DNA of 64,000 nucleotides, taken from contig CAYHVI010000002.1 in NCBI GenBank assembly GCA_964359655.1, positions 176-64,175 of the forward strand. Reading direction: 5' to 3'. The notes below the pieces were generated by a model, which worked only from the letters and a program-made list of their open reading frames with translations, was not told the DNA's origin and made no database searches. Within the stretch, counting starts at the first letter, position 1. Each line of letters starts with the position of its first letter. The stretch is from an uncultured Candidatus Saccharibacteria bacterium (lineage in GTDB: Bacteria > Patescibacteriota > Minisyncoccia > Minisyncoccales > UBA10102). This document shows, piece by piece, positions 30,367 through 34,764 of the stretch. A program made the translations under genes and the position numbers.

Positions 30367-30426
30367 CTACAACTTGAGACCTCTCCTTTGCGGGAGAGGT
30401 CTTTGTGAAATATTCTATAAAGTGTT

Positions 30427-30546
30427 TTATATCTTATAAAATCCTTTACATAAACTTCTCCCAATACCAAACATCGCCATTTTCTGCGCAAAGGCGACGG
30501 GGGTATCGTGGGACATCAATCTTATTTGTGAATATCCAATTTCCAT
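30427..30546 (-). CDS. Near-leaderless mini-ORF (39 aa)
   Basis: ATG lies 8 nt after the -10 box. Translation: MEIGYSQIRLMSHDTPVAFAQKMAMFGIGRSLCKGFYKI. Confidence 0.35.
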   Translation of the reverse strand: MEIGYSQIRLMSHDTPVAFAQKMAMFGIGRSLCKGFYKI

Positions 30547-30554
30547 GTTTCCCA

Positions 30555-30583
30555 AGTATATTCTTTTGCGAATAATTTGTCAA
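30555..30583 (-). promoter_or_regulatory. Sigma70-type promoter
   Basis: TTGACA, 17 nt, TATACT on the minus strand. Confidence 0.6.
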
Positions 30584-30648
30584 TCCCCTATTTATCCACA
30601 CAAAAACATAAGGAGCCACATAGTTGCGGCTCCTAAAAAGTGCGGGAG

Positions 30649-30724
30649 TGGCCCGGGATGGACTCGAACCATCCAGTCTCCAAGCGGATCGCGCCTGACG
30701 CTTATACCTCCAAGCTAACGGGCC
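30649..30724 (-). ncRNA. tRNA-like element (76 nt) with canonical T arm and acceptor but a non-canonical anticodon arm
   Basis: GGCCCGT/CCGGGCC acceptor with a 7:66 mismatch, D arm GCTT-GGAGGTAT-AAGC, T arm GATGG-TTCGAGT-CCATC. The best anticodon loop is GCGAUCC, which lacks U33 and a purine at 37. Hairpin terminator 30612-30633 follows. Confidence 0.45.
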
Positions 30725-30733
30725 ACTTGGACT

Positions 30734-30901
30734 CTAGGAAGGATTATTTTTCGGCTTCGGGCTGCCAGGCATCGCGTCTGGCTTCTTTGGGTCAAGTTGC
30801 TCCTTTTGTTCCTCGACGAAATCGAAGCCTTCTAGGGCATCGGGATCTACATCTTCTCTTTCGAGAGTGCCGTGTTCAAGATCACTTTTACTAATAGGCA
30901 T
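30734..30901 (-). CDS. Acidic mini-protein (55 aa), unknown function
   Basis: SD GGAGGAGA precedes the ATG. Translation: MPISKSDLEHGTLEREDVDPDALEGFDFVEEQKEQLDPKKPDAMPGSPKPKNNPS. Confidence 0.5.
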   Translation of the reverse strand: MPISKSDLEHGTLEREDVDPDALEGFDFVEEQKEQLDPKKPDAMPGSPKPKNNPS

Positions 30902-31012
30902 GTCTCCTCCTTCTTGGGTGCTAAATTTGCGACTACATATCGCAGGAAAATATCGAATGAATCCATATCTTGCTGCGATATTCAATCTTCCTTAAAAGAG
31001 CTATAAACGAAA

Positions 31013-31034
31013 CGACCTCCCAGCTGGGAGGTCG
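31013..31034 (-). terminator. Leader hairpin/terminator, copy 2 of the ACCTCCCAGCTGGGAGGT palindrome
   Basis: CGACCTCCCAGCTGGGAGGTCG followed by TTTCGTTTAT. Lies between the Leu/Val mini-ORF and the 55-aa ORF. Confidence 0.6.
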
Positions 31035-31058
31035 CGTGATATGTTTAAAGTATTTTTC

Positions 31059-31160
31059 TTATCTTACGTATGCATATCGTAAATCTCCCAACCATAGAGG
31101 TTGCACCAAGATCAACATCAAGACCAAAACTTGCTCGGTGAGATTTAAGATTGTTTGCAT
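31059..31160 (-). CDS. Leaderless Leu/Val/Ile-rich mini-ORF (33 aa), candidate leader peptide
   Basis: ATG lies 7 nt after TATAAT. Translation: MQTILNLTEQVLVLMLILVQPLWLGDLRYAYVR, with 9 Leu, 4 Val and 2 Ile. Confidence 0.45.
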   Translation of the reverse strand: MQTILNLTEQVLVLMLILVQPLWLGDLRYAYVR

Positions 31161-31167
31161 TATTGTC

Positions 31168-31195
31168 ATTATACTCAAGCAGAAACCTCTGTCAA
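31168..31195 (-). promoter_or_regulatory. Consensus sigma70-type promoter
   Basis: TTGACA, 16 nt, TATAAT on the minus strand. Confidence 0.65.
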
Positions 31196-31260
31196 CCCCC
31201 TACTAATAAAATGGCGGGAGGACAGTGAAGCGTTTCAGTTGCTCTACCGTCCCCCCGTCT

Positions 31261-31488
31261 CTAAATGACCAGGCAAGTTACAGTACGAATGACTCCCCGG
31301 GTTGTGTGAATCGGACCGGTTACGATGTTGCAAATCGCAAACAAATCTGGGGCATCGACCCTAACTATAATGTCGTACGAGCCAGTAACCTGGTCGACAC
31401 TCGTGACCCCGGGTATGACACCCAGGGTTTTGACCGCCTCCCTTGACGCTGTGGGTGCCATTTCGATTAAGACAATGGCTTTCGACAA
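31261..31488 (-). CDS. Stand-alone Lrp/AsnC-type ligand-binding (RAM) domain protein, 75 aa
   Basis: TTG start 6 nt after GGAGG. Translation IVLIEMAPTASREAVKTLGVIPGVTSVDQVTGSYDIIVRVDAPDLFAICNIVTGPIHTTRGVIRTVTCLVI fits the AsnC_trans_reg fold pattern. Confidence 0.7.
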   Translation of the reverse strand: MSKAIVLIEMAPTASREAVKTLGVIPGVTSVDQVTGSYDIIVRVDAPDLFAICNIVTGPIHTTRGVIRTVTCLVI

Positions 31489-31517
31489 TATCTGCCTCCT
31501 TTTACTGAATAGTGGAT

Positions 31518-31546
31518 ATTATAGCTCCAAGGAGAAATTATGTCAA
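31518..31546 (-). promoter_or_regulatory. Perfect-consensus sigma70-type promoter
   Basis: TTGACA, 17 nt, TATAAT on the minus strand. Confidence 0.65.
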
Positions 31547-32920: not shown

Positions 32921-32934
32921 CGTACTAGTACGAT
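32919..32934. promoter_or_regulatory. TrpR-type operator O1 (perfect 16-bp palindrome ATCGTACTAGTACGAT) overlapping the -10, TSS and ATG of the repressor gene
   Basis: Seen directly. The promoter is TTGACA (32954-32959), 18 nt, TATCGT. The ATG at 32920 lies inside the palindrome. Confidence 0.7.
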
Positions 32935-33021
32935 ATCATTTGCAAGCAGTTGTTGTCAAGCGGGGTGTCTGTGGAAAAATCAAAAGGCGTAGTTGTAGAT
33001 AACTACGCCTTTCTCGAAGTG

Positions 33022-33183
33022 TTACGCTGCCTTCCTCTTTCGGAGGGCTTTACATTTGAATAATCTTTCGAGTTGATGGAGTCGTCTCTCGCAGGGACCG
33101 CAGGGTTTTCTGTATTTTCTTGGGCATCCCATCAATTTCTGTCCAAGATTGATTATCTCTATTTCTTGAATCGCAAACATCAT
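33022..33183 (-). CDS. Basic Cys-containing mini-protein (53 aa), below the ORF-track cutoff
   Basis: SD AAGGAGAGGGGG precedes the ATG. Translation: MMFAIQEIEIINLGQKLMGCPRKYRKPCGPCERRLHQLERLFKCKALRKRKAA. Terminator 32984-33011 follows. Confidence 0.5.
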   Translation of the reverse strand: MMFAIQEIEIINLGQKLMGCPRKYRKPCGPCERRLHQLERLFKCKALRKRKAA

Positions 33184-33229
33184 TGCCCCCTCTCCTTATC
33201 CGATTTATTGAACGAACCAAAACAAAAAT

Positions 33230-33244
33230 CCAGCCCGCGGCTGG
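33230..33244 (-). terminator. Leader hairpin plus U-tract inside the 5' leader of the 53-aa ORF
   Basis: CCAGCCgcgGGCTGG followed by ATTTTTGTTTTGG on the minus strand. Confidence 0.5.
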
Positions 33245-33277
33245 AGTGCTATTGCGAAATGCCTTATCGTATTTCTC

Positions 33278-33364
33278 TTATGCAAAAGTCGCAACAAAAA
33301 TCTCACAGCCGGAAGGGCCTTGGAGACATGCACAGCCACAGCATGAAGAAATAATATAAGACAT
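33278..33364 (-). CDS. Leaderless Cys-rich mini-ORF (28 aa), candidate leader peptide
   Basis: ATG lies 7 nt after TATACT (promoter TTGACA 33394-33399, 16-nt spacer). Translation: MSYIISSCCGCACLQGPSGCEIFVATFA. Confidence 0.45.
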   Translation of the reverse strand: MSYIISSCCGCACLQGPSGCEIFVATFA

Positions 33365-33402
33365 TACGATCAGTATACTCGTTCAGAATTGCTTGTCAAC
33401 CC

Positions 33403-33457
33403 CAGAAAAAAATTGGGTGGAACTTCTTTGATTCTTTGAATCATTGAGGTTCCACCC
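33403..33457 (-). terminator. Rho-independent terminator of the DAHP synthase gene
   Basis: GGGTGGAACC...GTTCCACCC followed by AATTTTTTT on the minus strand. Confidence 0.75.
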
Positions 33458-33466
33458 TTACGGAAG

Positions 33467-34486
33467 TTACGCTTTGCGGTTTATCACAGCCCTGATTGGC
33501 CTAACCTGATCCATCATATTCGCGAAGTTCTCGAAGGTCAGCGACTGCGCGCCGTCGCACTTGGCGACGTCAGGGTTGGGATGCACCTCGACGATGAGGC
33601 CGTCGGCCCCCACTGCCGTCCCAGCCATTGCCAGCGGCGTCACCAGATACCACTTGCCGGTGCCGTGGCTGGGGTCAACGACGACGGGCAGATGGCTCAG
33701 CTTGTGGATTACCGGGATGGCGTTGAGGTCCAGGGTGTTGCGGGTGTAGGTCTCGAAGGTGCGGATGCCCCGCTCGGTCAGGATGACCTGATGGTTCCCC
33801 TCCTTCATCACGTACTCGGCGGCCAGGAGCCAGTCCTCGTAGGTGGCCGCGAAGCCCCGCTTCACCATCACGGGCTTGTCGGTCTTGCCCACCTCGTCCA
33901 GCAGGGGGAAGTTCTGCATGTTGCGAGCGCCGACCTGGAGCACGTCGGCGTAGCGATAGACCATCTCCACGTCGTTGGGCGACATGACCTCGGTGATGAT
34001 GGGCAGGCCGGTCTCCTGGCGGGCCTCGGCCAGTATCTTCAGCCCGTCCTCGCCCATGCCTCGGAAGCTGTAGGGGGATGTCCGAGGCTTGTAGGCCCCG
34101 CCGCGCAGCACCTGAGCGCCGGCCGCCTTGACCGCCCTGGCCGTCGTCAGCACCTGCTCCTCGTTTTCTACGGCGCAGGGGCCGGCGAACACTGCAAAGT
34201 GGCCCCCGCCGATCTTCACGCCATTGTCGCTTATGGTAACGATGGTATCCTCGGCGGAGAACTCGCGGCTAGCCAGCTTGTAGGGCTTGGATACGCGGAA
34301 CACCTCGCTCACGCCGCGCATCAGTTGAAGCTCATCCTGAAGCTCTGGGTACACCTGCCCCAGGACGGCCACGACCCTGCGCTCCACGCCGACGTTGAGC
34401 TGTCCCCGAAGTCCTTTCTCGGTTAAATGCCTTTGAACCCGTTCAATGTCTCCATTGCTCGCTCCTCTACCCATTACGACGATCAT
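33467..34486 (-). CDS. 3-deoxy-7-phosphoheptulonate (DAHP) synthase, type I-beta with N-terminal ferredoxin/ACT-like regulatory domain
   Basis: 339 aa from the ATG after AGGAGG. Translation MIVVMGRG...[10 protein letters not shown]...GPCAVE...[19 protein letters not shown]...VDPSH is co-linear with the Thermotoga-type enzyme. The gene is visibly GC-rich. Confidence 0.92.
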
Positions 34487-34585
34487 TCTCTTCCTCCTAA
34501 GTGCCACACTTCACTATCTGTAAAGCGCTAGAGATTATAAGTTTTTCTCTAGCGATGATTTTCAGAGACTAAAGACCATCGCTAA

Positions 34586-34623
34586 AGCTAAACGAAAACT
34601 CCGGCCGCTGTCGGCCGGAGTTT
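34586..34623 (-). terminator. Attenuator terminator in the DAHP synthase leader
   Basis: AAACTCCGGCCGacagCGGCCGGAGTTT followed by TCGTTT. Its left arm and loop (GCCGACAGCG) are complementary to CGCTGTCGGC inside the leader ORF (34674-34683). Confidence 0.7.
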
Positions 34624-34646
34624 AGTATCTTTAGAAAACTATGAGC

Positions 34647-34727
34647 TTATGCTCGTTTGGATACCAAAATCTTGCCGACAGCGTCGGTAAAGAAATAAAA
34701 GTATCCAAAGAATTGCTTCAAACCCAT
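34647..34727 (-). CDS. Phe/Tyr-rich leader peptide (26 aa)
   Basis: Own translation: MGLKQFFGYFYFFTDAVGKILVSKRA. Five Phe and two Tyr fall within 8 residues. The ATG lies 9 nt after the -10 box. Confidence 0.6.
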   Translation of the reverse strand: MGLKQFFGYFYFFTDAVGKILVSKRA

Positions 34728-34736
34728 ATTATGTAC

Positions 34737-34764
34737 AGTATACGCGATCAAGAGATGCTGTCAA
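34737..34764 (-). promoter_or_regulatory. Sigma70-type promoter of the DAHP synthase unit
   Basis: TTGACA, 16 nt, TATACT on the minus strand. Confidence 0.65.

Follow-up and report, generated by a model that had tools for sequence, protein, structure and literature searches.

Probable leader-peptide attenuators in a likely amino-acid-sensing island of a Candidatus Saccharibacteria bacterium

What are runs of codons for one or a few amino acids, each set shortly before a terminator, doing in the genome of a bacterium of the Candidate Phyla Radiation (CPR), a group usually regarded as reliant on amino acids from outside the cell? The question is raised by a 64,000-nucleotide stretch of DNA from an uncultured Candidatus Saccharibacteria bacterium (assembly GCA_964359655.1, contig CAYHVI010000002.1; hereafter “the window”), in which a region of small open reading frames (ORFs) at 30.2-34.8 kb holds five minus-strand units (a-e), a trpR gene and a lone RAM domain. 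A first-pass annotation had proposed that all five units share one layout: promoter, leaderless or nearly leaderless mini-ORF, hairpin and a small output ORF. Units a-d were recovered exactly where it had placed them, but unit e, which has neither the codon bias nor a U-tract, does not belong with them. We consider it likely that units a-d are ribosome-mediated leader-peptide transcription attenuators (very probably in the case of a, b and c, probably in the case of d) and that they belong to a family of leaderless attenuators of this kind that recurs in the CPR and has not been described before. For the region as a whole, an amino-acid-sensing island is the best explanation, and we hold it with good confidence.

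Units a-d are built alike (coordinates in Table 1). Each opens with a near-consensus promoter (the match is 11-12 of 12 positions in units b and d; the -10 element of unit c, TATAGA, is weaker), continues with a mini-ORF at or near the predicted transcript start that carries a run of regulatory codons, and passes through a terminator (a GC-rich stem followed by a U-tract) to an output ORF led by a Shine-Dalgarno sequence (SD); independent scans recovered both the promoters and the terminators. The leader ORFs, whose translation is predicted, are 26-33 codons long, and their ATG lies 9 (a), 7 (b), 19 (c) or 7 nt (d) from the -10 element. Within the run, 7 of 8 codons specify Phe or Tyr in unit a, 4 of 6 Cys in unit b, 6 of 7 Ile in unit c and 8 of 9 Ile, Leu or Val in unit d; the run occupies codons 6-14 of the leader ORF, or codons 11-19 in unit d. 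Between stop codon and terminator lie 23 (a), 32 (b), 25 (c) and 23 nt (d), and every attenuator terminator is followed, some 45-110 nt further on, by an SD-led gene; every output has a strong SD and a terminator of its own. Units c and d do share a terminator palindrome, as had been claimed: CCTCCCAGCTGGGAGG occurs exactly twice in the 64 kb, in these two units, against 0.1 occurrences expected. Another motif, UUUUGCAUAA, is common to units b and c, where it stands in different reading frames. When the whole 64 kb was scanned for the module of promoter, mini-ORF and terminator, no comparable module was found outside 30.2-34.8 kb; the sole other match, at 52841 on the plus strand, combined a poor TTGCAG/TAAAGT promoter with an unbiased 15-residue ORF.

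A second hairpin stands between the attenuator terminator and the output SD in three of the units, at 34550-34585 (a), 31841-31868 (c) and 30937-30981 (d); these could be processing sites, stabilisers or a further control point.

The mechanism that we propose for this layout is as follows. A strong sigma-70-type promoter would give a transcript that starts on the AUG of the mini-ORF or slightly upstream of it, the mini-ORF would be translated without a leader, and the run would sense Phe/Tyr (a), Ser/Cys (b), Ile (c) or Val/Leu/Met/Ile (d). One to five codons past the run lies a segment that duplicates the 3' arm of the terminator: with ample charged tRNA the ribosome would cover it, the terminator would form and the transcript would end after ~130-155 nt, and with cognate charged tRNA scarce the ribosome would stall in the run, leaving the segment to pair with the 5' arm of the terminator and allowing read-through into the output. 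The sensor cassette would be the conserved part of such a unit and its cargo exchangeable: probably a horizontally acquired DAHP synthase in unit a and small lineage-specific proteins in units b-d, with a tRNA-like RNA as well in unit d. The reading is carried by the anatomy, by position-dependent alternative folds, by homologous leaders before cognate biosynthetic genes and by conservation at the level of the RNA; we infer where the transcripts start, that the mini-ORFs are translated, that the units respond to the charging of tRNA, and any function of the outputs.

The alternative folds depend strongly on where the ribosome stands. With the ribosome modelled as a 30-nt unpaired footprint at each codon in turn, units a, b and c have a terminator stem with a probability of 0.00-0.01 when the A-site is in the early to middle run and 0.95-0.99 when it is past the run, a contrast of 0.94-0.97 that none of 100 dinucleotide shuffles per mini-ORF could match. 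The pairing partner of the terminator 5' arm is found at codons 16-20 in unit a, 18-22 in both b and c, and 23-26 in d. Such pairing had been claimed for all four units; in duplex energy it stands out from dinucleotide shuffles of the mini-ORF in a, b and c (33, 28 and 0 shuffles per 1000 were as good), but is weaker in d (87 per 1000). Unit a has a full four-region layout (1:2, 2:3, 3:4), in which region 3 is the 5' half of the terminator and regions 2:3 form a 24-nt antiterminator duplex, 83% complementary, that was also reported by an independent repeat search. Unit c has no protector (1:2) hairpin and its untranslated RNA folds as the antiterminator, so the model predicts read-through when there is no translation. 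In unit d a 9-bp antiterminator with wobble pairs is set against a 10-bp GC-rich terminator, and until the terminator 3' arm has been transcribed it is the antiterminator that is predicted to form. Mutually exclusive terminator and antiterminator folds that follow the position of the ribosome were thus found in units a-c; the attenuation logic put forward in the first-pass annotation is supported by the folds in these three, is plausible in d and does not extend to unit e.

Conservation, too, falls on the RNA. Unit d is orthologous to leaders at two other CPR loci, L116 and L117, with which it shares promoter region, run and terminator type, and the conserved antiterminator strand GGGAGAUUU is read as G-D-L in unit d and as G-R-F in L116 and L117. 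The pair that this strand forms with the terminator loop varies (C-G in L116, U-A in L117, U.G in unit d), and because its partner base lies outside the terminator stem, the compensatory change is specific to the antiterminator. The leader of unit a can likewise be aligned with those of L103 and L092 (72% mean column identity), and the L103 terminator is nearly identical to its own. Homologues keep the composition of the run and the RNA segment, while the remaining peptide, and even the reading frame, differ, as had been anticipated for codon runs conserved without their peptides. Judged from these alignments, the conserved entity is evidently the RNA switch and not the peptide. On folding and on conservation alike, the outcome that the first-pass annotation had named as a refutation was not the one observed.

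How widespread are such leaders? Loci were sampled around DAHP synthase homologues and, as a second set, at 80 places where CPR genomes carry a CPR-type TrpR homologue. On a contig of Candidatus Gribaldobacteria (L078), a leader with a Leu run, MLKVASKLNALLLLPSRVGRFGFVAIKA, and its terminator stand directly upstream of leuA, and a second leader, MSKQTNFQFFYFYTFPAKEVCLSFVNDK (run FQFFYFYTF), stands with its terminator upstream of a DAHP synthase gene. The 80 trpR loci, ~0.7 Mb in all, hold dozens of leader modules: more than 20 loci have a Trp leader (WW or WWW) a short way downstream of trpR, and Phe, Leu, Ile, mixed branched-chain, Cys, His/Thr and Met leaders also occur. In these loci and in L078 the downstream genes that can be recognised are mostly cognate to the run: behind Phe/Tyr leaders lies prephenate dehydratase or DAHP synthase, behind Trp leaders anthranilate synthase (trpE) or a trpD-trpC fusion, and behind a Met leader a protein that carries a SAM hydroxide adenosyltransferase C-terminal domain. 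There are non-cognate exceptions (some Trp leaders precede a radical-SAM/SPASM protein or one with a tRNA-Thr_ED domain), only 3 of ~25 distinct Trp leaders lie upstream of trp genes, and small unrelated ORFs behind orthologous leaders are the rule in other CPR loci. The stall-dependent switch could be modelled in most of these leaders as well. A pair-count test of the Ile and branched-chain leaders was dropped, the register of the multiple alignment being too poor, and cognate versus non-cognate duplex energies were used instead; among 30 non-redundant leaders, a leader's own ORF pairs with its own terminator arm better than the ORFs of other leaders do (mean z -1.75; cognate pairing among the top 3 of 30 in 18 leaders).

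In its mechanism this family is not new. Like the enterobacterial trpL, pheL, ilvL, leuL and hisL leaders, units a-d combine a short ORF bearing a run of regulatory codons with a terminator and an antiterminator between which the position of the ribosome would choose, and the four-region layout of unit a is the enterobacterial one in full. Unlike the enterobacterial leaders, the leader ORFs of a-d are leaderless or nearly so rather than SD-led, unit c has no protector hairpin, and units b-d control small proteins without homologues, together with a tRNA-like RNA, rather than biosynthetic operons. Unit a also resembles, in logic, the aroR leader of Corynebacterium glutamicum, whose Phe-Tyr-Phe codons control the DAHP synthase gene aroF by ribosome stalling (Neshat et al., 2014, as summarised in PMC11802643): in both, aromatic codons stand upstream of DAHP synthase. 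The likeness is one of logic, the phylum is another, and the enzyme of unit a appears to be a recent foreign gene on a leader whose L103 homologue controls a non-orthologous DAHP synthase. For unit b the nearest parallel is the mycobacterial “Cys ribulon,” in which leaderless polycysteine short ORFs act as Cys-responsive attenuators of cysteine metabolic loci (Canestrari et al., bioRxiv 10.1101/834739). The mycobacterial units are several and independent but have one sensed input, and their mechanism is translational: a stalled ribosome blocks a structure that would sequester the downstream ribosome-binding site (bioRxiv 10.1101/834739). Unit b is likewise leaderless and has clustered Cys codons but, unlike the mycobacterial short ORFs, it has an intrinsic terminator and an antiterminator, and its output is a 53-residue protein without homologues. 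What appears to be new in the CPR units is the lineage, the exchangeable cargo and the small homologue-less and tRNA-like outputs; full-text literature searches for leader peptides or attenuators in connection with Patescibacteria or the Candidate Phyla Radiation returned no paper.

The exchange of cargo is most easily followed in unit a, the only unit whose output can be tied to the amino acids sensed, as the first-pass annotation had recognised. Its DAHP synthase is of type I-beta, with a ferredoxin-like regulatory domain, and the gene lies ~10 GC points above the genome average of 44%. The nearest relatives of the enzyme are in Dehalococcoidia (77% amino acid and 78% DNA identity) and have no leader there; none of the ~20 closest relatives (Dehalococcoidia and other Chloroflexota) has an aromatic leader, which indicates horizontal transfer of the enzyme and not of the leader. 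In those Chloroflexota the gene instead follows another ORF, by eye a putative chorismate mutase. The comparison points to a DAHP synthase recently acquired by horizontal transfer and set behind a resident Phe/Tyr leader. The homologous leader drives a non-orthologous DAHP synthase at L103 (27% identity over 48 residues, a marginal match) and a 92-residue protein of no family at L092, so here the sensor has been conserved and the cargo replaced.

Unit d differs in ending on an RNA. At the 3' end of its operon stands the tRNA-like element of the first-pass annotation, which ARAGORN calls tRNA-Ile(GAU). The element misses the Rfam tRNA threshold (its best score is 23.7 bits, to tRNA-Sec, against 56-70 bits for the window's five other tRNAs), and its anticodon loop, GCGAUCC, lacks U33 and R37; the acceptor and T arms are canonical. 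Two relatives have a comparable arrangement: a tRNA-Leu(GAG) gene without a long variable arm (L099, 2393-2469; Rfam 50.7 bits) and a tRNA-Leu(GAG)-like gene (L106, 3542-3633) each follow a Leu leader and a small protein, and both Leu leaders contain CUU and CUC codons, which a GAG anticodon reads. The tRNAs and tRNA-like RNAs of such mini-operons may be candidates for attenuator control.

Several points weigh against our reading of units a-d and are best taken together. Start sites and premature 3' ends are predictions from sequence. The claim that the mini-ORFs are leaderless or nearly so holds for units a, b and d, but unit c, with a leader of ~12 nt that lacks an SD, is short-leadered. The TTA-type repeat of unit c can also be read in another frame as a Tyr/His-rich ORF (..KSYYHYYYDF..FFA; 31960-32076) that ends at the GCATAA motif; this frame is probably not expressed because its ATG (32076) lies inside the promoter. 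Searches of Rfam, at the gathering threshold and at permissive E-values, found no leader, T-box or riboswitch family in the units; the best leader scores were 21-23 bits to Phe_leader RF01859 over the c and d terminators, against a threshold of 55. In the ribosome-footprint model unit d has no equilibrium switch (contrast 0.02), its antiterminator does not stand clearly above shuffles, and it ranks 11 of 30 in the cognate-pairing test. The E. coli trp leader, run as a control (100% identical to the annotated trpL), likewise shows no switch in the model; since a proven attenuator fails too, the test is conservative, and we do not read the failure of unit d as a refutation. Lastly, nothing ties the outputs of units b, c and d to the amino acid that is sensed. 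The 73- and 55-residue outputs (c and d) found only themselves in 5.8 billion clusters, the 53-residue output (b) had no match in 1.84 billion representatives, and none of the three had a match in 0.77 Mb of sampled loci, Pfam, NCBIfam or PHROGs. The 53-residue protein, moreover, has 4 Cys where 0.4 would be expected, which is odd for a protein induced by shortage of Cys-tRNA. Single-sequence AlphaFold models of the 73- and 53-residue proteins are helical and, at a predicted local distance difference test score of ~57, too poor for a fold search.

These outputs invite the view that units b-d are regulatory fossils, left behind when Cys, Ile and branched-chain biosynthetic genes were lost, and that the ORFs now downstream are remnants or accidental and have no function. 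The want of homologues would fit, as would the three ORFs, unrelated to one another, behind the leaders that unit d, L116 and L117 have as orthologues, the Leu leader of L099 that precedes the allosteric domain of LeuA alone, as a truncated leuA might, and the presence in relatives of the same leader types before full biosynthetic genes. Against this, the promoters are near consensus apart from the weaker -10 element of unit c, leader ORFs and runs are intact, the modelled switches work, and each output has kept its SD and its terminator. The 73-residue output has 1 Ile where 5.3 would be expected and the 55-residue output 7 Ile/Leu/Val where 13.3 would be expected (P = 0.027 each), a depletion in the sensed amino acids that is to be expected of proteins made under starvation. 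In relatives, a number of the small outputs belong to conserved families (93 residues in L116 and 72 in L167, E = 6e-4; L136 and L144, E = 7e-4), and by eye a 67-residue protein of L094 resembles a 72-residue protein of L099. Small CPR genomes are expected, besides, to keep little dead DNA. We regard fossil units as unlikely, although the view has real support, and favour functional small outputs for b-d, since promoter, run, switch, SD and terminator have each been kept whole in a genome that is probably streamlined; the “novel effectors” of the first-pass annotation are candidates compatible with the data.

It might also be supposed that the product that matters is the peptide itself: the mini-ORFs would encode small hydrophobic peptides of the type I toxin kind, and the hairpins would be merely their terminators. 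Units c (LIIIIITIL) and d (VLVLMLILV) do have hydrophobic stretches, and a terminator follows each mini-ORF, but a run of 9 residues is too short for a membrane helix, the peptide of unit a is rich in aromatic residues and that of unit b in Cys, neither being membrane-like, and beyond every terminator there is an SD-led gene. Homologous Trp, His, Met and Phe runs match downstream biosynthetic genes, and in orthologues the conserved segment is carried in different frames, on which ground we reject the toxin reading as scarcely credible; the type I toxin-antitoxin class was set aside on the length of the runs and the shift of frame, no search for antisense RNAs having been made. A milder version, compatible with attenuation, would have the terminated leader RNAs or the leader peptides act in trans as the main product, with the ORFs secondary. 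By default each unit would indeed yield a structured RNA of ~130-155 nt from a very strong promoter, and a precedent exists in Sinorhizobium, where the trp attenuator peptide peTrpL acts in trans according to PMC7298713; the conservation that we observe is explained by a switch in cis, however, and we think a principal role in trans quite improbable.

If units a-d are attenuators with functional outputs, we would learn from them how a shortage of individual amino acids is met by organisms believed to be without most amino-acid biosynthesis, and they would provide sequence-defined, amino-acid-specific sensors for an uncultivated lineage. A wider scheme can be proposed tentatively, and we rate it as possible rather than probable: the leaderless attenuators, TrpR operators and lone ligand-binding domains of CPR bacteria would together form a starvation-sensing network, amino acid by amino acid, with exchangeable and mostly non-enzymatic outputs (tiny lineage-specific proteins, and tRNAs or tRNA-like RNAs matching the sensed amino acid). 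Such a network would report the supply of each amino acid rather than control its biosynthesis. TrpR operator and attenuators occur together in the island, as they do at the E. coli trp operon, and in relatives such as L094 a single gene is under both the operator and a WW leader. A similar order is seen on contig L099, which comes from the groundwater sample that also holds the island's proteins: trpR first, next a Trp leader and small proteins, after these a Leu leader followed by a LeuA-domain protein and tRNA-Leu, and an Ile leader last.

Table 1. Coordinates of the features discussed, in positions of the window
Feature	Position	Strand	Remarks
Unit a promoter TTGACA / 16 / TATACT	34764-34737	-	
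Unit a leader ORF MGLKQFFGYFYFFTDAVGKILVSKRA, 26 codons	34727-34647	-	
Unit a Phe/Tyr run FFGYFYFF	34712-34689	-	
Unit a region 1 CUUUGGAUAC	34710-34701	-	inside Phe/Tyr codons
Unit a region 2	34656..34683	-	pairs with region 1 or, as antiterminator, with 34629-34606
Unit a region 3 and terminator	34590..34629	-	terminator 34623-34590; stem 34623-34596, then U-tract
Unit a output, DAHP synthase	34486-33467	-	
Unit b promoter TTGACA / 16 / TATACT	33399-33372	-	leaderless
Unit b leader ORF MSYIISSCCGCACLQGPSGCEIFVATFA, 28 codons	33364-33278	-	
Unit b Ser/Cys run SSCCGCAC	33349-33326	-	
Unit b antiterminator strand CCGGCUGUGAG	33312-33302	-	
Unit b terminator UCCAGCC-GCG-GGCUGGA, then UUUUUGUUUU	33246-33219	-	
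Unit b output, SD-led 53-residue basic protein, 4 Cys	33183-33022	-	own terminator 33013-32982
Unit c promoter TTGACA / 18 / TATAGA	32085-32056	-	
Unit c leader ORF MSLRNLIIIIITILMPQKLGVIFLHK, 26 codons	32036-31956	-	
Unit c Ile run LIIIIITIL	32021-31995	-	
Unit c antiterminator strand GCCUCAAAAGCUGGGAGUC	31992-31974	-	
Unit c terminator GACCUCCC-AGCU-GGGAGGUU and U-tract	31930-31895	-	
Unit c output, SD-led 73-residue protein	31817-31596	-	own terminator 31588-31567
Unit d promoter TTGACA / 16 / TATAAT	31195-31168	-	leaderless
Unit d leader ORF MQTILNLTEQVLVLMLILVQPLWLGDLRYAYVR, 33 codons	31160-31059	-	
Unit d Val/Leu/Met/Ile run VLVLMLILV	31130-31104	-	
Unit d antiterminator strand UGGUUGGGAGA	31094-31084	-	
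Unit d terminator, 10-bp stem	31035-31005	-	palindrome as in unit c
Unit d output, SD-led 55-residue acidic protein	30901-30734	-	
tRNA-like element	30724-30648	-	3' end of unit d operon, between 55-residue ORF and terminator 30634-30611
trpR	32920-32609	-	leaderless mRNA; with promoter 32959..32609
TrpR operator, palindromic ATCGTACTAGTACGAT	32934-32919	-	overlaps -10 and start of trpR
Second TrpR operator	32581-32566	-	upstream of 34-residue ORF
34-residue ORF	32567-32463	-	stop overlaps start of 107-residue ORF; translationally coupled
Trp-rich 107-residue ORF	32463-32140	-	5 Trp against 1.0 expected
Stand-alone Lrp/AsnC ligand-binding (RAM) domain, 75 residues, SD-led	31261-31488	-	12/12 consensus promoter; region 31261..31546
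Unit e	30223..30583	-	promoter; leaderless 39-residue ORF 30546-30427; hairpin 30401-30378; zinc-ribbon ORF (30354 or 30366)-30223
HicA toxin	35859-36080		within the rpsP/khpA-trmD stretch
HicB-like partner ORF of HicA	35513-35851		no Pfam hit

The tryptophan branch of the island consists of trpR, its two operators (the only TrpR operator sites in the 64 kb) and the two coupled ORFs behind the second of them. The 107-residue protein has a homologue in L117 (region 10270-10883, 35% identity) that lies behind a WWW leader and terminator, which makes it a recurrent output of Trp sensing. Small Trp-leader outputs of other CPR loci often end in a GW or GGW motif (..SGWGHS in L094, ..GGWGGGP in L144, ..GGWPQE in L160), and the protein of the window ends in ..PPWGPQDE. 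The nearest named relatives of TrpR itself, at no more than 68% identity, are in Candidatus Yanofskybacteria, Paceibacterota, Parcubacteria and Peregrinibacteria. The -10-to-ATG spacing of the leaders recurs at trpR and at lexA-like and rplU-like ORFs (the last two identities are inferred from sequence), so leaderless initiation appears to be used for ordinary genes too; this, like trpR with its operators and the lone RAM domain, had escaped the first-pass annotation.

PF08915 (tRNA-Thr_ED) is the editing domain of archaeal threonyl-tRNA synthetase; at L166 (2984-3424), L168 (1904-2344) and L086 (10570-10968) a protein with this domain follows trpR or its Trp leader. At L099 (1890-2372) the Leu leader is followed by a 160-residue protein that consists of the LeuA allosteric (dimerisation) domain alone (Pfam 4e-30) and could represent either a leuA cut short or a leucine-binding protein that stands alone; the lone RAM domain of the window is analogous to it. 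A 68-residue ORF of L099 is itself RAM-domain-like by eye.

Unit e had been described as a hairpin that sequesters the SD of a zinc-ribbon ORF. Its parts (promoter, 39-residue ORF, hairpin and zinc-ribbon ORF) all exist, its promoter is of the shared type and its hairpin resembles the c/d terminator in sequence, but the 39-residue ORF has no amino-acid bias, no U-tract follows the hairpin, and 13 nt separate the end of the hairpin from the SD downstream of it (30364-30360). At every modelled ribosome position the hairpin forms (P ~1.0) and the SD is about equally accessible. The constant hairpin and the unchanged access to the SD, with the missing codon bias and U-tract, speak against an SD-sequestering riboregulator and against an attenuator, and we count unit e as neither; it may be a decayed paralogue or a simple two-gene operon of small proteins.

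The genes rpsP and khpA-trmD are usually neighbours. Here they (rpsP at 39894-39526, khpA-trmD at 30068-29008) enclose a ~9.4-kb run of small, mostly unannotatable ORFs in which the island lies, and which looks like a variable insertion into a normally conserved gene cluster. Besides the island, the stretch at 30068-39526 holds ~5 kb more of small ORFs of no family, a HicA toxin gene with a HicB-like partner, and repeated segments at 36094-37779 (found by a repeat search). Exact copies of the island's proteins came solely from contigs of Hainich groundwater well H51, chiefly of the 0.1 µm filter fraction; compared with the window, these contigs have one differing position in the island, in trpR, which is too little variation for a test of selection.

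Among the loci sampled around DAHP synthase, aromatic-rich ORFs occur outside the CPR as well. Two contigs of metagenome-assembled genomes (MAGs) labelled DPANN archaea (L031, 1068-1145; L049, 936-1016) have a conserved mini-ORF ending in ..NEFFLD(K/R)xFFYFYF(R/W), ~2 kb upstream of their DAHP synthase genes. MAGs of Deltaproteobacteria and Desulfurellaceae have aromatic-rich leader ORFs, such as MKIVCSFSYTYWYYWYYFYFWGGSLPV, at L035 (2793-2897), L058 (2702-2800) and L067 (2846-2929), each followed by a terminator-like hairpin with a T-run and placed directly upstream of the DAHP synthase gene; attenuation of this class of DAHP synthase may be widespread.

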